A stretch of DNA of 64,000 bases from Scenedesmus sp. PABB004 (taxonomy: Eukaryota). Below are positions 52,135 through 63,701 of the stretch, piece after piece. Below the pieces are notes generated by a model, which saw only the letters and a list, made by a program, of their open reading frames with translations, did not search any database and was not told the origin of the DNA. Location: NCBI GenBank assembly GCA_014905635.1, contig JABVCE010000003.1, positions 806,001-870,000 of the forward strand. The letters run 5' to 3'. Within the stretch, counting starts at the first letter, position 1; each line of letters begins with the position of its first letter. Both the position numbers and the translations under genes were made by a program.

Positions 52135-54185
52135 CTAGCCGCGCAGGCCGAGCAGGCGCCGCGCGTTGGCCATCTGCGCGCCGCACATGCCGCTCCAGTC
52201 GCAGGGGCCGAAGAACATGGGGTTGGCCACGACGATGAGCAGCAGGTTGGTCAGCGCGACTGCGGCCGGCTGCGGCAGCCGCCAGCCGCGCGCGGCGCAC
52301 GCGCGCGCGAGCGCGGCCTCGGCGGCGATGATGGGCGCCTGCACCGCGAAGAACGCGGGCCAGTGCGGCGCCCACAGCCCGGTCGCAAAGCGGAAGATCA
52401 GCGCGTGCTGCGGCCGCGCGGCCGCGCGGCCGCGCGAGGCGGGCGGGGCGGAGCGGGCGGGCGGGGACGCCGCTGGTGGGTTGGAGCGCGGCGGCGGCGC
52501 GCGAGCGGGCCTGCAGGGGCGCGGCGACGCAGCGCCGTGCCCCGGCCGCGGCGCGCCGCGCACCCAGAGGCCGGAGAAGGCAAACGTCGCCTGCAGCGCC
52601 GCGAAGCGCCGCAGCGTGCGCGAGCGGCGGCGGCCGCCGGCGCCGGCGCTGGCGCCGCGGCCGGGCGCCGACTGCGGGCGCGGCGCGGCGCCGGCTGGGC
52701 TGCTGCCATTGCTGCTGCCCGCCGGCGATGCGCCGCCGCCGCTCGCAGCGCTGGCCGCGATGCGGACGGCGCCGCCGCCCTTGGCGCCCGCGCGCGTGCG
52801 CGGCCCGGCGGCCGCGCCCTCGGACGGCGCCGGCGGCGCGCCGGCGAGCTCGGGCCCGGCCGGCGCCGCCGCCGCGGGCGCGCGCTGGGCGGCGCCGGCC
52901 GCTGGCGCGGCGGCCTGCTGCCCAGCCGGCAGCAGCCGGCCCTCCATGATGGGGTCATAGATCAGCACCCTGCGCGCGCCGGGCGGCGGCGGGCGGCAGC
53001 GCCGTCGCCGCAGCTCCCGGGGCCCGGCACCGCAGGGCGGCGCGGCCGAGCTGCCGCCCGCGCGGCGCTCGCGCGTGCGCCGTGCTGCCCCCCGGCGCCG
53101 CCCCGGCGCCGCGCGCGTCGCACCGCAGGCAGTAGGTGGCGGTCAGGTTCCAGCGGCGCGACCAGTAGTCGGCGAACGAGGTTGACAGCCAGGGCTTGTC
53201 GAACGACGGCGCGAGGCGCAGCCCGAGCGACAGCGTCACGGCGAGGCACCACGCGTCCCAGATTGCGCCGAGGCTGAGGCTGAGGCAGAGGGCATAGAAC
53301 CAGTGGCGCGCGAGCTCCGGCAGCACGGGCCACGTCGCGAGCGCCGCGGCGGCCGCCGCGCCGGTGGCCTTGGCGGCGTAGCTGCGCCCAAACGCGGCCG
53401 CCGTGGCCGGCGCGGCGCTCGACAGGCCCGCCGCGGCAGCCCCGGCGCCGCCGCCGCCGCTGAGCTTGAACGCTGCGGCACGGGCGCCCGCGGGCGGGCG
53501 GGGACTGAGGGGTGTGGCTGCGCACGGCGGCGCGGCGGCAGCGCGGTGCTGCGGTGTCGCGGTGCTGCGGCGGCGGCGGAGGGCCGCACCCGCGCTGGGG
53601 ATGACGGGCGCACACATGACGGCGCCAAAGTGCGGCAGCCGGTCCAGGCCCGGCAGCGCGAGCGGGCCGCGGCCGAGCGCAAACGCGGCGACCTGCGGCG
53701 GGCGCGCCGGCGGGCGGGCGGGCGCGTGCGGGCTTCAGAGAGCAGGCCTGCAGCTGCCGCGGCGCGGCCAGCAACGCGCCGCGCCTTGAAGGCAGCCAGC
53801 GAGAGCATGCCGGCGACGGGGACTGCGGCGCGGGCGGCACATGGCGCCGGCATCGGCGCGCGGGCGGGCAGCGGCTGCCGCCCTGCAGCGCCGCAGCGCG
53901 CACGGGGGCCCCTCCTGGAGTCTGCGCGCGCGCACCGATGAGCACCGGCATGCGCCGCCGGTCGACGAGCGCAGGCGTCGCGGCCAGGAGCGCGGCCACG
54001 ACCGGCGCGCAGGCCGCGGCGCGCGCGGCGCCGGGGCGCGCGCGGCGCGCGACGAGGAAGACCCACGCGCTCGCGGCGGCGGCGAGCGCGGCAAACAGCA
54101 CCCACGCGCGCGCGAGCTGCGCCGCGTCGCCGCCGCCGAGCGCCGCGCCCGCGGCTGCCAGCGCGGCGCCGAGCGGGCCGGCCAT
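52135..54185 (-). CDS. MBOAT-family wax synthase / long-chain-alcohol O-acyltransferase-like membrane protein, multi-exon
   Basis: FK|VAAFALGRGPL, LAPSFDKPWLSTSFADYWSRRWNLTATYCLR|VLIYDPI, ATFAFSGLW|HALIF (catalytic His), FFAVQA, several TM helices. Stop TAG 52135-52137. Confidence 0.9.
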
Positions 54186-54724
54186 GCCGTGCGTACGCCT
54201 CGTCGAGCCCTGGCCGCGTGCCGCGGGCGCCGCGGCGCTCGCGAGCAGGCCGAGGTCGGCGGCGGCGGCGGGTGCGAGGCGGCACGTCGCGCAACGGAGG
54301 GGCGTGCGTGGCGCGGTCGACGCGGTACGGCGGGACGGCAGGACCCAGCCGCCGCGGACGCCGCGCGCCGCCGCGGGCGTCGTCGCTGCGGCGCAAGGGC
54401 TCCGCCGCCGCCGGCGCGCGGGCGGCTCGCGCCCGCCGGCGTCGTAGCAGCAGCACCTGCGCCCGCCGTCGCCGCGTGTGGTTGCGCCAGCGCGTGGGAC
54501 GGCCCTCCGCAGAGCCAGCTCGGACCGACCTCGCGGCATGCGCACGCAGGAGGCCCCCCAGCAGTGCCACCGGCGGTGATCGTCGCTGGTGAGCTGCCGG
54601 GCGCGGGGGAAGGGCTGGGGGGCGCCTGCTGCTCTGCTGCTCCGCCGCTCCGCTGCTGCCGCCCGCGCCGCCGCACCCGGCCCCGCCCGCGCCGCCCCGG
54701 GACCGTCCTCAGGGCGGGGGCGGC

Positions 54725-55143
54725 ATGGCGGGGGCGGTGGACCTGCGGCAGCACCTGGTGCGCATCAACGCCGCCCGGCGCGCGGCGGAGGACCTGCGGT
54801 GCGAGGCGGCCGCGGTGAAGGCCGCGTCGCTGCGGGATGAGGCCCAGAAGCTCGTGGCCGAGGGCCAGGAGGTGGTGCGGGAGATAGAGGCGACGGTGCG
54901 GCGCGGCGGCGCTGCCGGCGGCACGCCCGCCCGCGCTCGCAGCCCCGCCGCCGCCCACGGCGCCGCCGCCCCGGCCGCGCAGGCGATGTCGCCCGACTGC
55001 AACCTGCTGCCGGAGACCATCGGCCGCGCGGCGCACAAGGCGGAGGAGGCGCTGCGCGTGCTGCAGGCGCGGGCGCGCGCGCGCGCGCCGCGGCGCGCGC
55101 CCTCCGCCGGCGCCGGCGCTGGCGCGGCGCGGCCGGCGCCCAC

Positions 55144-55174
<31 letters not shown>

Positions 55175-57768
55175 AGGGCAAGGTGGTCACGGCGGCGCGC
55201 GAGTCCAAGGGCAGCTTTCTGAGCAAGCTGGGGCTCGGCGGCTCGCACAAGAAGATCTTCAAGGTGCGGCCCGCCCGCCCGCACAGCTGCCTGCCGCCGC
55301 CAGCTGTGCGCCCACCACGCGCACGCGCGCGCGCGCCCGCCGACCCGCCGCGCCGCCCGCGGCCGCGCCGCGCCGGCGGGGCAGGAGGCGCGCGACGCGC
55401 TCGCGGCGGCGCGCGCCGCGCTCGCGGCCGAGGCGACGGGCGACCCGCTCACCGACGACGACGAGCCGGGGCCCGACCCCTCGGTCGGGCGCGGCGGCGG
55501 CGGCGGCGGCGGGCGGCGCCGCTGCGGCGGCCAGCCCCGGCGAGCTGCACCTGAGCTGGGAGCGCGGCGCCAAGGTGTCGGCGGTCGGGCTCGTGCCTGG
55601 TGAGGCCAGCGCGACGCTGTGGGTGGGGCTGAGCCGCAAGGTCGAGTTTTACGTCGGCTGCAGCGCGTCCGCGCGGCACGAGTACCCACTGCCTGACAAG
55701 GTGCGCGATGCAGCACGCCAGGCAGCGCGCCAGGCGGATCGCGACGGCGGCGGCTGGCGCACAGCGGCTGGCGCGCCGACGCACGCCCGCGGCGCGCGCG
55801 CCCGCGCGGCGGCGCCGCAGGCGCAGGCCATCACCGCCGTGGTCTGCGACGCCGCGCTGGGGCACGTGTGGACGGGGCACGCCGACGGCACGGTGCTGCT
55901 GCACGCGCGCGGGCAGTGGGGCGTCGGCGCGTGCCCCAGCGCCGTGGGCCTGCCGGTGCGGTCGCTCGCGGTCGACGCGCGGCACTACGCCTGGGCCGGC
56001 GACGACGCGGGCATCATACGCGTGCTGAGCCTCGACCCCGCCACGGGGCGTCTCGCGGCGCGCATGCAGCTGACGCCGCCGCAGGCCACCGGGCTGGTGC
56101 AGCTCGCGGCGCGGCGCGGGCCCGCCGAGGCCGCCGCCGCGGCGGCCGCCGCGGCGCCCAGCCCCGCGAGCGCGCCGCCGCCGCCGGGCGTCGCGGGGCG
56201 GGGCTTCCCGGTGGCGGCCATGCTCGGCCGCGCGGGCGTCGTGGTCAGCGCGGGCGGCAAGTGGGCGACCGCGCTCACGGTGTGGCACGCCCAGAGCTAC
56301 AGCGAGCTCGAGGTCGCCGCGTGCGACAGCTTTGGCGCGACGCAGGCGCTCGCGCTGCTGCCTTGGGCGGACGACGACGGCGGGGAGGAGGGCGACGGCG
56401 GCGCGGCGGCGGGCGTGCCCGCCGCCGGCATTGCGGTCGGCTGGGCCGCCGGCGCGCCGCGCGCGACCGTGCCGCAGCGCGTCCTCGCCGCGAGCGCGGC
56501 CGGCGCCGGCGGCGGCGCCGCGCGCGGGCCCGGCGGGGCGGGCTCCTTTGGCGCCAAGGCCGCCCCGGACGGCGCGGAGTATCGGGGCTGGCGGCTGCTG
56601 TCGGGCCACGAGCGCGGCCAGGTTCTGGTGTGGCAGGTGCGGCCGGCGGGCCGCGCCGGCGGGCCGCGCCCGCTGCACCTGGTCGCCGCCATCGGCGACG
56701 CGCGGCCGCACTGGTGAGCGCGCGCGGACAGGGGCGGCGCGTGCGGCGCGCCGCGCCGTGCGCCGGGTGCCGCGCCGGATGGTGCTGGGGCTCACCCGCC
56801 GCCGCGCCCGCCCGCGCAGCGCTGTGCGCGGCATGGCCGTCTTGCCCGACTGGTCCATGCTCGTCCTGGCGCACGCCTCGGGCGCGCTCTCGCTGCTGCC
56901 CGCGCCCTCCGCGAGCAACGGCGCCGCGCCGGCGCCGGGCGCCGCGCCCAGCGCGTTTGCGGCGGTCGGCGTGCCCGCGCTGCCGGGCGCGCCGGCGCTC
57001 GGCCACGCCAGCGGCGGCGGGCTGCACGTCTGGCGGCCGCGTGTGGCGAGCATCAAGGCACACAAGTCGGGCATCGTTGCCACCACCGCGCTGGTGCGTG
57101 CTGCAGGCCGCCGCGCCGCCCCGCCGCGCGCCCGCGTGCCGCCCGCGTGCCGCCCGCGGGCCCTCGCCCGAGCCCCCGCCGCCGCGCCGTGCCGCGCCGC
57201 GCCGCGCCCCGCCGGGGCAGGGCGAGCTGCTGGTGACGGCGAGCGCTGCGACGGTCAAGTCCTGGACGGCAGAGCGGCTCAAGCTGGAGGCGCAGGGCGA
57301 CGGCGTGATGTTTGCCCGCGCCAGCTCGGCCGCGGGCGGCAGCGCGCCGGCGTCGGGCGGCGGCGACGCACCGAGCAGCGCCGGCAGCGAGCTGCCCGAC
57401 CGCGCCGCCGCGGCCGCGGCCGCGCTCGCGGCGGCCGAGGCGGAGCTCGCGGCCGAGGCGGCGGCCGAGGCGGCGGCCGCCGCGAGCAGCCAGGACGGCT
57501 CCGGCGCGCCGCCGCCGGCGGCGAGCAGCAGCGACGCGACGTCGGGGTCGTCCGCGCCGCCGGCGCGGCTGCCTGCGCGGTGCAGCGCCAGCAACCCGAT
57601 GTCGCGCGCCGGCGCGGCGCAGCGCGGCCTGCGCGTCGACGCCAAGGGCACCGTGCTGCTCAGCGGCCCGTCCAGCGGCAGCGCGCCGCCGAGCAGCGCG
57701 TTTGGCGCCTTCCCCGGCGGCGGCGGCCTGGCGGCCATGCCCACCACAATGGGCTTTGGCGCCCAGGT

Positions 57769-57817
<49 letters not shown>

Positions 57818-60800
57818 GCGCGCGCGTGCCCGCCGGCCGAGGCTTCACGTCGCACCGCGCCGCGCGCGCGCGCAGGCGCACCCGCTGCCGCCGGGCGTCT
57901 CGATCGGCCTGTCGGGCGCGCCGAGCGGCGGCGGCGGCGGCGGCGCGCTCGAGCCGTCGGGCAGCGTCGCAGAGGCGATCAAACTCTGCCACGTCATCTG
58001 CAACAGCGAGCTGGTGCTTAAGGACGTCATCGGCAGCGGCGCAGAGGGCAAGGTGGGGTCTTAGGCCTCAACCCTCTAAACCCTAAACCCTGCGCCGCGC
58101 GGGGCCGGCGCGCAGGCGCGCAGGCGCGCGGGCGGGCGGCCGACGCGCGCGCGCCGCGCCGTGCCGCGCAGGTGTACCGCGGGACGTGGACCAACATCGA
58201 CATCGCCGCCAAGGAGTACCTGGCCGTTGACGACGACGCGCCGCCCGGCGGCGCCGGCGCCGAGCCGGGCGCGCCGCCGAGCGACGCGGGCATGCAGCAC
58301 GCGCGGGTGCGGCGCGGCGCGGCGTGGCGCGGCGCCGCCGCCGCCCTCCCCGCCGCCACCGCCCCCTCTCGCCGCCCCGCTCGCCGCCCCACCGCGCCCG
58401 TTCTGTCCCTGCCCGCGCGCCGCGCTGCGCCCGCGCGCCGCGCTGCGCCCGCGCGCCGCGCGCCAGGACGCGCTGCGCAAGGAGGTCGCGCTGCTGACGA
58501 CGCTGAACCACCCCAACCTCGTGCGCTTCTGCGGCGTCTGCCTCGACCCGCCGCTCGTGGTCATGGAGTTTTACCGGTGCGCACGCACTAGGGTTTAGGG
58601 GCCCTAGCACAGGGACCCTGGGCAGGGCCGCGCGCCGGGCCCGGCGGGGCGGGGCCGCCAGCGGGCGGCGCGGGGCGCGGCCCGGGCGCTCAGCGCACAC
58701 CGTATGCCAGCGTGTGCCACATGCCAGCAGCCCTCGCCTTGGTGCACGTTCTTGAGGTACCTGTCCCTCTGTGAAGTCGTCGGCGCAATGCCTACGACTA
58801 CATGGAGGGACAAAAAACTCGAGAAGGGCATCAAGCTGAGGGCTGCTGGCATGTCGTGCACCCGCGAGGGCGGGCAATCGTCCCGCAGCACGCGGCCACG
58901 GGCGCGCCCGCCCGCCCCTCGCGCTGGGCCCCGCCCCGCGCCGCCGACGCGGCGGCGGCGCCGGCCGGCGCCGCCCGCCCCTCCCTGCGCCGCGCCGCGC
59001 AGGCACGGCAACGTGTTCAGCATGCTGGAGAAGGCCCGCCGGCAGTGGTGCAACGTCGCGGGCGCCAAGGCCGGCGCCAAGGGCGGCTCGACCAAGGCGC
59101 GCGCGCGCGGGGGCACGCGGGCACGCGGGCGCTCGGGCTCTCGGGCTCTATTCAAACGGCCCTTTTCGAACGCCGCAGTACATGGCCTACTTCAACTGGG
59201 ACCGGCGGCTCGAGATGCTGCACGACGTCGCGTCCGGCATGATGTACCTGCACAAGCGCCACTACGTCCACGGCGACCTGCGCAGCCCAAACCTCTTCGT
59301 CGGCTCCGACGGACGCGTGAGACACACCGCGCGCGCCGCGCGGCCGCCGGCTTGACTCACACGCACGCGCGCGGCCGCGCGGCGCGCGGCGCGCGGCCTC
59401 GCACGCGCGCTCACGTGTGCCGACGCGGCGGCTGCGCGTTCTGCAGGTGAAGATCGGCGACTTTGGCTTCACCAAGCGCCTCAGCGGCAGCAAGGCGAGC
59501 ATGCAGGTCAAGCGCATCACGCACCCGCGCTGGGTCGCGCCGGAGCTGATGACGCACAACCGCCTCAGCACCGCCAGCGACGTCTACAGGCGCGCTGCCC
59601 GGCACCGCGCACCGCGGCGGCCGCGCTGGGCCGGGTCGCGAACCGCCGCCGCGCCCACGCGTGAGGCTGCGCCGCGCGCCGGCTCAGCACCGCGCCGCCC
59701 CGCTGCGCGCCGCCCGCGGCCGTCTCCGCCGCCCGCCTGTCTGCCTGCTCCCTTGCAGCTACGGCATCATCATGTTTGAGATGCTCACCTGGGCGCTCCC
59801 CTTCAACGAGCTCAGCAAGGAGCAGGTGCGCGGCGCGGCGAGCGGCGGCGGCGGCGGCGGCGGGAGACAGGGGCCGGACGGGAGTCCAGCGCGCACGCGC
59901 CCGGGCGCGCGCCGCGCACCCTGAGCGCGGCCGCGGCGCGCGCGCGGCGCGCAGGTCGTGCTGCGCGTGATGTCTGGCGGCCGCCCCGACATGCCGGGCG
60001 ACGAGGAGCTGCCGCCCGGCACCAGCAGCAGCACATGTGCGCGCCGCGCGCCGCCACCCGCGCCCGCGCCCGCGCCTGCCGCGCCGCGCCGCCGCGCCCG
60101 CCGCGCCGCCAGCTCGCCGCCAGCCCCGCCGCGGCGGCTGTTGAACCCCGCCCGCCCGCCACCGCCCGCCACCGCCCGCCACCGCCCGCTCCGCACAGGC
60201 CTGGGCAACTACAAGAAGCTCATGGCCGAGTGCTGGTCGCAGGACCCGGAGGCGCGCCCCGGCTTTGACAAGATCGCGGCGCGGCTCAAGGCCATGATCC
60301 GCTGGCGCATGGTCATCGCGCGGAACAAGATACTCTCCTCCGTCGCGCGCCGCCTGCGCGACGCGCCGCGCGGCGGCGCCGGCGGCGCCGGCGGCGGCGC
60401 GGCCGCCGCGGGCGCGGCCGCCGCGGCCGCCGCCGCGCGGCGCCCGCCCTCGGCGACCGCCGCGGTCGCGGCGGGCGCGGCGGCGGCGGCGGCCGCCGCC
60501 GCGGGCGGCCGCGGGCAGGGCACCGGGCGTGGCGGCGGTCGCGCCGGCGCCCGCCGCCGGAGCCGCGAGCGCGGCGGCCGCGTCGGCGGCCGCTGCGGCC
60601 GCTGCGGCGGCTGCGGCGGCCGCGGCGGCGGCCGGCGGGGAGCCCGAGCACGAGCCCCTGCCCGTGCCGGACCACCCCCTGGTCGCTGTGGACGGCAGCG
60701 ATGTGGAGCTGCCGGTGCTGCCGGGCGCTGCGCTGCCGGCCGGCGTCGTGCCGGCGGCGCCTGCGGACGCAGTCAGCAGCCCCCCCAGCGGGGGTGCGCT

Positions 60801-63701
60801 GGGCAGCGCAGACGTGGCGGCGCAGGCCGGCAGCGGGCTGGGCGGCGCGCCGGCCGCGGCCGCCGCGGGCGCGGTGAGCGGCGGCGGCCAGCCCTCGACC
60901 CTCAGTGGCGCGCCGTCCAGCCGGTCTGTCACGTCGCCCCTGGGACCGGCGGGGCTGCACCTGCCGCCCCCTTCGCAGGAGGCCGAGCAGCGCGCCGCAG
61001 ACGGCGGCCCGGCGCTGTCGGCGCCCGCGCTGGCGGCAGTGGGCGGCGCCAAGCAGCCCGGCGGCCGCGACGTGGAGGACTGGCTGGCGCACCAACAGGG
61101 TCCGGCAGCCGCGCCCCAGGCGCAGCCCGGCGGCGCGCAGCAGGCGCCCGCGTCGGGTGCGGCGCCGGAGCAGCAGCAGCCGCAGCAGCAACAGCAGCAG
61201 CCGCCGCAGCAGCAGCAGGCGCCGGCGCCGCAGGCCGACGTGTTCACAGCCCAGGACTCGCCGTTCTGCGGCTTTGCCGCCCCGGCCATCGGCTCGGCCA
61301 GCGCGGGCGGCTCGCTGGGCGGCGCGCTCGGCGGCGGCAGCCTGCCGGAGGACGAGAGCCTGCCGCTCGCCGACGGCGGCCCCGCGCTGGGCGCGGCAGT
61401 GACGCTGATCTATGCCGAGGGCCTGACCCCCATGGACGCGGCGCTGCGCTCGAGCGCGACGACGCGGGCGGGCACGCTCAGCGGCGCCACGCTGCCCAGC
61501 CTCGAGGCCGGCCTGGCCAGCGGCGGCGCGCCGCGCCGGGACCCCTTTGACGCGCCGTTCCAGGAGGACAACTTCTGCAGCGCGGGGCCGTTTGGCGCGG
61601 CCGTGCGCGGCGGCGGCGGCGGCGACAACCTGGCGAGCGTCGGGCCGTTTGCCCGCGGCGGCTTCGGCGACAACCTGGCGAGCGTCAGGCCGTTTGCCCG
61701 CGGCGGTGCCGGCGGCGACAACTTGGCAAGCGTCGGGCCTTTCGCCCGCGGCGGCGGCGACAACCTGGCGAGCGTCGGGCTGTTTGCCCGCGGCGGTGCC
61801 GGCGGCGACAACTTGGCAAGCGTCGGGCCTTTCGCCCGCGGCGGCGGCGACAACCTGGCAAGCGTCGGGCCGTTTGCCCGCGGCGGTGCCGGCGGCGACA
61901 ACCTGGCGAGCGTCGGGCCGTTTGCACGCGGCGGTGCCGGCGGCGACAACTTGGCAAGCGTCGGGCCTTTCGCCCGCGGCGGCGGCGACAACCTGGCGAG
62001 CGTCGGGCCGTTTGCACGCGGCGGCGGCGGCGGCGACAACCTGGCAAGCGTCGGGCCGTTTGCCCGCGGTGGCGGCGGCGGCGGCGGCGACGACAACCTG
62101 GCGAGCGTCGGGCCATTTGCCGCAGCAGGCAGGGCCCCGCCCACCAGCATGGGCGCGTCGCCGTTCGCCACCTCGCCGCGCTCGCACCCCATCGCGGTTG
62201 CCGGCCCCGGCGGCCAGCCGGGTCTGGGCGGCGGCTACGCGGGCGGCGGCTACCTAGGTGGGGCGTACCCTGGCGGGGCGCACCCTGGTGGCGCGTTCCC
62301 GGGCGTCATGATGCCGCAGCAGGCGTACCCGCCATACGGCTACGGCCCTGGCCCCTGGGGCGGCGCCGCCATGGCGGCGCAGGGGCACATGGCGCCGCCG
62401 GCGATGCCGGGCCAGCCCGGCGGCCCCGGCGGGGCCGCGCCCGGGGCGCCTGGGCCGCAGGCCGCGCCCGGCGGCGCCCGCCAACCCTCGCCCGCGCCCC
62501 GCGGCCCGCAGCCGCGCAGCCCCGTGCTCGGCGCCGGCGGCGGCGGCGGCGAGCACCCGCCGCCCGGCGGGCTGCCGGGGACGCCGCAGGGCAGCCTCAC
62601 GCCCGGCGGCGCGGGGCCGGCGTTCAACCGCCCCCTGGATGATGCCTGCCTGAACAGGCGCCTGGGCGCGGCAGACGAGGGCGAGGACCTGATGGAGAAA
62701 GCTCAGCGCGACCTCGCGGCCTGGCAGCGCACCGGCGCGGCGGGCAGCCGCTCGGGGCGGCAGCGCGCCGCGTCGGGCTCGGCCGACACGGTGCGTGGCA
62801 GCCAGGACGAGCTCGCGCGCGTGTCGGGCGACGGCAGCGGCGCCGGCGGCGGCTTTGCGGGCGCGGGCTGGGCGCCGCCGGGGCGAGCCGGCAGCAGCTT
62901 TGACGCGCCGCCCGACGCCGCGACGCTCGCGGCGCTGGGCATGCCGGGCGGCGTCGTGCCGCCGGCCGCGTTTCGCCAGATTGCCCCGGGGGAGCGCGTC
63001 ACCGTGGTCAACCGCCCCGGCGGCCCCGGCGCTGCGCCGCCGGGCATGGACGGCCTGGGCGGCGGCGGCGGCGGCGCGATGGCGCCCTTGGGCCAGGCGC
63101 CGTGCTGGCCGCCGCCCCAGCTGGGCGCGGCGCAGCAGCAGCCCGGCGGCGGCTACGCGGACCCGGGCCAGCTGCAGCAGCAGCTGCAGCAGCAGATGCA
63201 GCAGATGCAGCAGCAGATGCAGCAGCTGCAGATGCAGCAGCAGGGGCAGCCGCCGCTGTCGCCCACGGCGCAACGCACTCAAAGCGGCTTCGGCCCGAGC
63301 GGCCCCCCAGCGGCGGCGCGCAGGCCGGCTGGGCGCACGCGTGCCTGGGCAGCGGCGAGGCGCCTGCGGTGCCGACGGACGGGCAGGGCACGGCGGCGCA
63401 GCAGCAGATGATGTGGGCGGCGATGCAGCAGCAGATGCAGCAGCAGATGCAGCAGCAGATGCAGCAGCAGATGTTCATGGCGCAGCAGCAGCAGGCGATG
63501 CAGCTCAGCCCGGGGCCGCAGCAGCAGATGATGATGCAGCAGATGCAGCAGCAGGTGCTGCAGCAGATGCAGCAGCAAATGCAGCAGCAGATGCAGCAGC
63601 TGCAGCTGCAGCAGCAGGGGCAGGCGCAGGCGCAGCAGCAGGTGCAGCAGCAGCAGGGCTACTCGCAGCAGCAGCCGCAGCAGTGGCCGCCCAACGCCTG
63701 A
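54725..63701 (+). CDS. Large TKL/Raf-like Ser/Thr kinase: N-terminal helical bundle, WD40-like propeller, kinase (~58000-60300), long disordered tail with tandem repeat and poly-Q/M end; apparent 1-nt indels near 55511, 60503 and 63305
   Basis: IGSGAEGK|VYRG, IAAKEY, LRKEVALLTTLNHPNLVRFCGVC, HGDLRSPNLFV, KIGDFGF, PRWVAPE, SDVYS|YG, ECWSQDPEARPGF; propeller blades VWTGHADGTV, AWAGDDAGIIRV, LLSGHERGQVLVW. Stop TGA 63699-63701. Confidence 0.88.
58070..58091 (-). repeat. Short interstitial plant-type telomeric repeat (CCCTAAA) in a kinase intron
   Basis: aaccctctaaaccctaaaccct. Confidence 0.6.
58589..58600 (+). repeat. Short interstitial plant-type telomeric repeat (TTTAGGG) in a kinase intron
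   Basis: tagggtttaggg. Confidence 0.55.
58714..58861 (+). ncRNA. Long unbranched stem-loop in kinase intron 58577-59002; candidate intronic pre-miRNA
   Basis: Hand-paired arms: 58719-58735/58838-58854 (17 bp perfect), 58738-58745/58828-58835, 58749-58756/58818-58825, 58762-58773/58801-58812, 58775-58780/58794-58799, 58782-58784/58790-58792, with a small terminal loop. Several G:U pairs on the + strand; GC much lower than the flanking intron. Confidence 0.65.
61609..62124 (+). repeat. Coding minisatellite: 11 copies (mostly 42-48 bp) encoding G(3-7)-DNLASVGPFAR
   Basis: ggcgacaacctggcgagcgtcgggccgtttgcccgcggc repeated with mostly synonymous variation and in-frame length changes. Confidence 0.95.

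Follow-up and report, generated by a model that had tools for sequence, protein, structure and literature searches.

What kind of protein is encoded on the + strand at positions 54725-63701 of this Scenedesmus sp. PABB004 DNA, of which one whole stretch of 64,000 nucleotides (nt), here called the window, was analysed? An initial annotation had proposed a single-chain cell-death or immune signalling kinase, with an N-terminal MLKL/RPW8/HeLo-type bundle followed by WD40-like blades, a kinase with intact Lys/HGD/DFG/APE motifs, an 11-fold repeat and a Q/M-rich end. We find at these positions a single multi-exon gene in DNA of about 80% guanine plus cytosine (GC), with a product of about 2,200 amino acids (aa). 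The product opens with a helical head (about 130 aa), which is followed by a WD40 propeller and a low-complexity linker; the kinase domain comes next, and the remaining part, about 1,000 aa, is a disordered tail that carries short conserved islands, 11 DNLASVGPFARGG units and a Q/M-rich end. The gene probably encodes a cytoplasmic multi-domain Ser/Thr kinase of the tyrosine kinase-like (TKL), non-RD type, which is conserved in Scenedesmus/Tetradesmus-like algae and would work as a lineage-specific scaffolded signalling kinase.

Gene structure, kinase and propeller

The regional GC content is 70-86%, and since stop codons are so rare in such DNA, long open reading frames (ORFs) occur in all six frames. 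The exon chain was assembled by hand from the codon-position GC frames together with GT/GC...AG splice sites. Throughout 54725-63701 one codon-position class lies at 0.93-1.00 GC and another falls to 0.3-0.7, and with rising coordinates the classes follow the order mid, low, high, which is the signature of coding on the + strand; the coding frame switches every 70-900 bases, as exons would. Over the 16 modelled exons the GC content of the three codon positions (GC1/GC2/GC3) is 0.74/0.59/0.96, and in the 15 intervening introns it is nearly flat by codon position, with overall values of 0.76-0.95. The confident introns measure 82-426 nt. The ATG is found at 54725 and the TGA at 63699-63701, and a start motif MA.VD... 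is common to eight relatives (P0003, P0004, P0005, P0007, P0009, P0010, P0012 and P0013). Minus-strand genes under the long minus-strand ORFs were also considered, and were rejected because the codon-position GC order fits the + strand.

For comparison we used three relatives. P0001, a Scenedesmus sp. hypothetical protein of 1,838 aa, was the sole match of a word-index search with the propeller stretch (46% identity over 94% of the query), and its automatic model holds head exons 2 and 3, the propeller, the kinase and a long tail. P0012, a transcript-derived ORF of 362 aa from EukProt, and P0013, an annotated Tetradesmus obliquus protein of 1,968 aa, were obtained by profile search among longer proteins and both carry the head in spliced form. 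A tblastn comparison of P0001 with the window, run with no low-complexity filter, gave so many chance matches in Ala/Gly-rich sequence that we relied on it for the kinase exons only. The central part of the gene comprises the following features.

55545-57300, + strand: WD40-type beta-propeller (exons 55545-55700, 55821-56713, 56820-57093, and 57221 onwards)
55701-55820 (in frame), 56714-56819 and 57094-57220, + strand: propeller introns
57300-57980, + strand: Ala/Ser/Gly-rich linker from propeller to kinase, made up of what remains of exon 8, up to 57766, and of the first part of exon 9, which begins at 57876; no Pfam match
57980-60340, + strand: TKL-type protein kinase domain in nine exons (57876-58052, 58172-58306, 58467-58576, 59003-59096, 59179-59316, 59447-59589, 59759-59825, 59955-60036, and 60199 onwards)

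In the spliced translation the kinase motifs are all intact: GSGAEGK (GxGxxG), IAAK (the beta-3 Lys), HGDLRSPN, DFG and APE, with a catalytic loop of the non-RD type (HGD). The Pfam family PK_Tyr_Ser-Thr matches four of the 16 translated window pieces, three of them at 26.3, 35.2 and 22.3 bits (cut-off 23.1), and it spans the whole domain in P0001 (E 1.1e-48, 166.2 bits) and P0013 (E 1.6e-56, 192 bits). The joins between the kinase exons agree with both of these proteins. The enzyme is apparently catalytically competent, as predicted from its intact motifs.

The window propeller exons have no match in Pfam, and the Pfam WD40 models stay below significance, the best being WD40_CDC20-Fz in P0001 (E 0.28). 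The fold is revealed by structure: an AlphaFold2 model of 55536-56714 (predicted template modelling score, pTM, 0.66) contains 20 strands in five groups of four, that is, five blades. With this model Foldseek returned at least 500 PDB matches at E<=0.001, with WD40 propellers on top; the first is Cdc20 (E 2.5e-7), and Cdc20, WDR61, ATG16L1 and others range from E 2.5e-7 to 1.7e-5, all with a probability of 1.00. Two more blades, predicted in exons 7-8, would close the ring. The gene bounds, the WD40-like blades and the kinase with its Lys/HGD/DFG/APE motifs, which the initial annotation had read from the sequence, thus hold up.

The kinase resembles the Raf-like/CTR1-type TKL kinases in scoring higher with PK_Tyr_Ser-Thr than with Pkinase, in its H.DL(K/R)SPN-type catalytic loop, and in its place after an extended regulatory part at the N-terminus. 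The solved kinases closest to that of P0001 are TrkC, TrkA, CTR1, TNNI3K, MAP3K12 and RAF, with CTR1, RAF, MAP3K12 and TNNI3K at E 1e-29 to 1e-22, all within the best 60 of 2,259 PDB matches. However, no EDR1, PAS, PB1 or other known N-terminal regulatory domain was found in the algal protein with Pfam, its loop reads HGD instead of HRD, and its kinase is preceded by the propeller and the family-less helical head and followed by the repeat-rich tail of about 1,000 aa. The LRRK2/ROCO kinases are likewise large scaffold proteins in which a TKL-group kinase is combined with a WD40 propeller, and the C-terminal half of LRRK2 appears at Foldseek ranks 41 and 48 of the propeller model. In contrast to these proteins, the order is reversed in the alga, where the propeller lies ahead of the kinase, and ROC GTPase, COR, LRR and ankyrin domains were not found with Pfam. 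The resemblance is architectural only.

As to partners, regulation and pathway, we infer that the propeller and the multivalent tail would recruit partners or substrates, and that the Q-rich end may contribute self-association. The role of the helical head would be regulatory or targeting, by docking on a partner or by folding back on the protein, and the active kinase would then phosphorylate the recruited proteins. The combination of head, WD40 propeller, active non-RD TKL kinase and repeat tail seems, by sequence comparison, to be confined to Scenedesmus/Tetradesmus-like algae in the libraries searched. The gene would then be a lineage-restricted, uncharacterised multi-domain kinase, mainly relevant to the annotation of green-algal kinomes.

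Several points weigh against this reading. The regulatory or targeting role of the head is a default assumption, and only the hairpin of exon 1 was modelled with fair confidence in this domain. The non-RD loop is a weak hint at an immune-type function, on the presumed tie of such loops to pattern-recognition signalling, and a scaffolded signalling kinase leaves this hint unused. In addition, a one-base change of frame is needed at 55484-55544, at ~60500-60620 and at 63258-63310, always inside GC-rich simple repeats. The splice sites there are weak, the introns would measure 53-61 nt, and the three changes could come from very short introns of this kind, from indels in the assembly or from true frameshifts. 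The first two lie in the following features (here and below, a slash marks an exon-intron boundary or an exon join), and the third within the C-terminus listed with the tail.

55484-55544, + strand: first frame-change junction, in a (GGC)n repeat; possibly an intron of 61 nt with weak sites (TCG/gtcggg...gcgag/) or an assembly indel
60340-60620, + strand: Ala/Gly low-complexity stretch with the second frame change; GC at least 0.88 at all three codon positions

If the frameshifts were real, or if unrelated pieces had been joined, the locus would be a decaying or misassembled gene from which the full-length protein is not made. This would account for three changes of frame at which only weak sites are available, for introns of 53-61 nt, against 82-426 nt for the confident introns, but we regard it as very improbable. 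The three breaks are all in simple repeats of high GC, where both a short hidden intron and an indel error would be plausible; strong GC3 resumes in the new frame past each of them; and all other exons are intact and in the same order as in the orthologues. Across the equivalent of 55484-55544, helix 4 leads directly into ...QLSWERG... in the P0012 mRNA, and P0013 runs through the equivalent of the second stretch, a poly-Ala, into ...DHDPLPRP..., compared with ...EHEPLPVP... in the window.

The helical head

The head precedes the propeller in four short exons, which are mostly helical, as had been described for the N-terminus.

54725-54895, + strand: exon 1, 57 aa, with the start codon and helices 1 and 2, which form an antiparallel hairpin
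54896-54982, + strand: intron 1, 87 nt (gtgcgg...gcgcag), GC 0.93/0.90/0.93 by codon position; absent from spliced P0012 and P0013
54983-55066, + strand: exon 2, 28 aa, with PDCNLLPETIG (the most conserved element) and the start of helix 3; ends at a GC donor, CAG/gcgcgg (55067)
55177-55263, + strand: exon 3, 29 aa, with the end of helix 3, a basic Gly-rich loop and HKKIFK; sites ccgcag/...AAG/gtgcgg
55385-55483, + strand: exon 4, 33 aa, with helix 4 (EARDALAAARAAL...) and an acidic linker; acceptor ggggcag/; GC3 1.00

The four exons tile on the spliced N-termini of P0012 and P0013 with no internal gap at any junction, which shows that the hand splicing of the initial annotation was correct and that exon 4 is real. 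The window head is identical to P0012 at 88 of 139 aligned residues (63%) and to P0013 at 76 of 129 (59%). PDCN[LM]LPETIG is present in P0001, P0006, P0008, P0011, P0012, P0013 and the window, and KKIFK/EAR[DN]GLA.ARAA is conserved in P0012 and P0013. Homologues of exon 1 or exon 2 were seen in nine more short ORFs, which come from metagenome or Logan contigs. Exon 3, with GC1/2/3 of 0.52/0.45/0.97, is conserved in P0001, P0012 and P0013, and carries seven K+R against one D+E. An AlphaFold2 model of the contiguous stretch of exon 1, intron 1 and exon 2 shows helices at 7-30 and 34-62 (predicted local distance difference test, pLDDT, 70-89) and a weaker one at 96-113, with a mean pLDDT of 61.7 and a pTM of 0.29; the intron-coded part is disordered. 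From its sequence and the partial model, the head would be a family-specific domain about 130 aa long, in which four helices are predicted, each of about 25 aa.

The head was also considered as a separate gene, and this was rejected, since in each of P0012, P0001 and P0013 it is connected with parts that lie downstream. In P0012 exons 1-4 are spliced, and the ORF passes from helix 4 via an acidic linker to ...QLSWERG..., which forms the first strands of the propeller, before it ends in a retained intron at the position of window intron 5. At least in this relative, therefore, the head is not a separate gene, and a separate transcript from 54725-55500, which the initial annotation had named as a refutation of its idea, is contradicted. 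P0001 joins exons 2-3 with the propeller, kinase and tail, and in P0013 head and kinase are parts of one protein. No in-frame ATG precedes the propeller exons in their own frame.

On the reading of the initial annotation, the head would be an executioner bundle of four helices, a diverged one of the MLKL/HeLo/RPW8 type, which would permeabilise membranes on release, with the propeller as sensor and the active kinase as control or relay in a single-chain cell-death or immune device. We consider this unlikely. In its favour, the head lies at the extreme N-terminus of a protein with a TKL-type kinase, and its length of about 130 aa accommodates four helical segments, each of about 25 aa. The kinase has a non-RD loop (HGD), and in the annotated P0013 model, if correct, the head lies about 130 aa ahead of the kinase. 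Strong conservation is seen in the connector from helix 3 to helix 4 and in the first part of helix 4; these may resemble the equivalent region of vertebrate MLKL, which serves as a lead only.

The searches, however, returned no such family. The spliced head was searched through its orthologues P0012 and P0013 as stand-ins, and the window exon by exon. With Pfam hmmscan at E<=10, spliced P0012, P0013 and residues 1-145 of P0012 gave no MLKL_NTD, RPW8, HeLo or related family: spliced P0012 matched 0 families, its residues 1-145 matched only SelB-wing_1 (E 0.046, 13.9 bits, cut-off 25), and of the 25 families listed for P0013 none begins before residue 268. The window head exons matched 0 Pfam families at E<=1. 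A profile of the head against all PDB sequences gave seven matches at E<=10, none of them MLKL, HET-S or a CC-type domain, and the best was the phage tail needle gp26, a coiled coil (E 0.0082). A phmmer search of the window head against the PDB gave chance matches at E>1 only, and the ESM Atlas held no usable match for the window head stretch or for P0012 1-135. A partial head model, which comprises the head up to but without helices 3b and 4, gave 0 Foldseek matches at E<=0.001 and 67 at E<=10, and nothing specific with either Foldseek or VIA-align; because helices 3b and 4 are missing from this model, the lack of MLKL in its match lists is not evidence.

The properties of the domain also argue against an executioner. 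HeLo and HELL domains are described as acting through a membrane-inserting N-terminal helix with transmembrane propensity (PMC10197012). In the algal head, the Kyte-Doolittle means over 19 residues are -0.13, -0.58 and -0.39 from residues 1, 5 and 10, so that the first helix is polar and has no transmembrane propensity; the hydropathy maximum of the head, 0.67, lies at residue 119. Conservation peaks in the loops, with the connectors PDCNLLPETIG and SKG.F...HKKIFKEAR best conserved of all, a pattern suggestive of a surface used in binding and not of the core of a bundle.

The layout and the kinase differ as well. In MLKL, brace helices tie the bundle directly to the pseudokinase, and the plant kinase-like domains lack catalytic residues (10.1101/681015). 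In the algal protein, in contrast, the propeller and linker place about 600 residues between head and kinase, there is no brace-plus-pseudokinase layout, and the kinase has all its catalytic residues. MLKL is absent from the best 60 of the 2,259 PDB matches of the P0001 kinase, to which MLKL is no nearer than other TKL/TK kinases are, and whose best matches are Trk, CTR1 and RAF. A further likeness, besides the all-helical N-terminal domain on a protein with a TKL-related kinase fold, is the low-complexity region that follows the algal kinase, to be compared with the serine-rich extension described after the pseudokinase of plant MLKLs (10.1101/681015).

The MLKL/HeLo/RPW8 idea is unsupported rather than refuted, because these families are so diverged that they can be linked only by comparison of hidden Markov models (HMM-HMM) or of structures. 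Plant and animal MLKLs were linked by HMM-HMM comparison, and these families are known to be linked only in this way or by structure (10.1101/681015), so negative sequence-to-profile searches are weak evidence. Plant MLKLs are reported across seed plants (10.1101/681015). CC/RPW8-like bundles are reported on NLR-like proteins of streptophyte algae, and TIR-NLRs in the chlorophyte Chromochloris (PMC10952240). Among the literature searched by title and abstract opening, no chlorophyte MLKL-like protein was found.

Of the labels given earlier, the MLKL/RPW8/HeLo bundle is thus supported neither by the Pfam and PDB-profile searches of the orthologue heads nor by the polar first helix, and the cell-death or immune kinase is equally unsupported. 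Of the single-chain architecture, the union of head, propeller, intact TKL kinase and repeat tail in one gene stands, and the executioner identity of the head is not supported.

Regulated cell death and immunity are poorly understood in chlorophytes. An 'active-kinase MLKL', that is, a highly diverged member of the HeLo/MLKL/RPW8 superfamily joined through a WD40 sensor to an active TKL kinase in chlorophytes, seems to us improbable. If it were true, green algae would possess a necroptosis-like executioner module, which would hint at how bundle-plus-kinase death proteins arose before the pseudokinase stage, and a head of the HeLo/MLKL type would be a concrete and testable executioner candidate in chlorophytes. 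Returning to the signalling kinase, its head is a small conserved domain with no match in Pfam, PDB sequences or the ESM Atlas, and merits a family entry of its own.

Searches for further relatives gave mostly fragments. The contiguous translation of exon 1, intron 1 and exon 2 (114 aa), compared exhaustively by phmmer with 1.84 billion representatives, gave seven matches at E<=0.001, of which six are short genomic ORF fragments from the JGI metagenome and Logan contigs. These six match exon 1 or exon 2 only, and diverge exactly at the modelled exon ends. A near-length profile search added two fragments of the same exon-1/exon-2 type. Contigs of 109 kb and 12 kb carry P0006/P0007 and P0010/P0011. 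The best phmmer match of the head stretch (E 9.9e-13) was P0002, of 2,936 aa, in which 17 short stretches align with query residues ~39-64, and which is probably a repetitive coiled-coil protein. A metagenome scan with the exon-1 alignment produced 594 pattern matches, 0 of them confirmed, and a scan with the propeller alignment produced two loci, L001 and L002. L001 is a distant homologue on a contig of 2,319 bp, and it starts too near the contig end to reveal a head; an Ala-rich helix similar to helix 4 is contiguous in it with the first propeller exon. L002 was rejected as a chance match.

The P0013 model deserves a separate remark. It joins the head (residues 1-130) to the kinase (268-559) with no propeller, and further on (1450-1960) it contains another stretch that is kinase-like, along with ten Armadillo repeats and a RING-H2 finger. 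The protein could be a real paralogue that has no propeller and is fused to an E3-ligase module; alternatively, the gene model could be merged or mis-spliced.

Tail and repeat array

Beyond the Ala/Gly-rich stretch the gene continues with the following features.

60620-63257, + strand: long tail in a single open frame, with conserved islands and a DPF.APF cluster at 61540-61575
61606-62121, + strand: tandem array of 11 units of 15-16 aa, GGDNLASVGPFARGG, detected by Tandem Repeats Finder
63169-63701, + strand: Q/M-rich C-terminus and stop codon, with CAG-rich repeats and the third frame change at ~63258-63310

The tail has no Pfam domain, the only match being IL11 at E 0.69, and its islands are common to the window and P0001. 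Tandem Repeats Finder reports the array at 61606-62083/62121, with a period of 48, 10.4 copies and 81% matches. The 11 units are Gly-rich; DNLAS occurs 11 times and GPF ten times, and the final 129 aa contain 58 Q and 16 M, so that both the 11-fold repeat and the Q/M-rich end noted earlier are present. Directly ahead of the array, from 61540, lies RRDPFDAPFQEDNF, with RRDPFDAPFQ beginning at 61540.

We take RRDPFDAPFQEDNF to be a cluster of DPF-/FxDxF-like motifs, which presumably correspond to the AP-2 appendage binders of endocytic accessory proteins. On this analogy the protein could be a membrane-trafficking or endocytosis kinase, in which the tail would form an adaptor-binding array (DPF.APF and 11 D.L....GPF units) followed by a Q-rich region, as in the tails of Eps15, AP180 and AAK1, and the propeller would supply further cargo or coat contacts. 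The cluster at 61540, the ten GPF and four [DSA]PF motifs of the tail, the similar D..(Y/V)DAGPF units of P0001 and P0013, and a tail with no folded domain in Pfam are consistent with this variant. However, the core of the repeat is GPF and not the canonical DPF, DPW or NPF, motif matches are cheap in low-complexity sequence, and the kinase is of the TKL and not of the NAK type. The likeness to DPF/FxDxF motifs and to the Q/P/A-rich region of AAK1 is presumed, and we hold an endocytic role, which would follow from motif resemblance, to be unlikely.

Introns and surroundings of the locus

Two introns of the gene, at 54896-54982 (87 nt) and 55701-55820 (120 nt), keep the reading frame and contain no stop codon, so that they lie concealed within long ORFs. 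In such GC-rich DNA the continuity of an ORF is therefore uninformative on exon structure, and these introns were revealed only by the codon-position GC and by the orthologues.

GC-AG introns, with the donor AG/GCGCG, were observed at 55067, 59590 and 59097, and make up two to three of the 16 introns of the gene. GC-AG introns usually amount to roughly 1% in eukaryotes, so that the share in this gene is far above the usual one. The donors at 55067 and 59590 are required, because they keep the orthologue-conserved RVLQ/GKV and DVY-S-YG; the donor at 59097, which keeps the loop length equal to that of P0001, is probable. With its stop-free in-frame introns and its use of GC-AG introns, the locus is a caution for gene finding in genomes of 80% GC.

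Upstream of the gene, at 52955-54400 on the - strand, lies a membrane-protein-like gene with a FADYWSRRWNLT motif and a weak match to MBOAT_2 (E 0.0085, 16.8 bits, cut-off 25). Since this neighbour is on the minus strand, 54725 begins a divergently transcribed gene.

In addition, we identified plant-type telomere-like repeats (CCCTAAA) in opposite orientation at 58074-58090 (+) in intron 9 and at 58591-58600 (-) in intron 11, where they flank kinase exons 10-11. Matches to CCCTAAA with at most one mismatch number five in the whole window, compared with 0.44 expected, and 0 of 100 shuffles reached five. The intronic repeats may possibly represent a telo-box-like element or a stem in the pre-mRNA.

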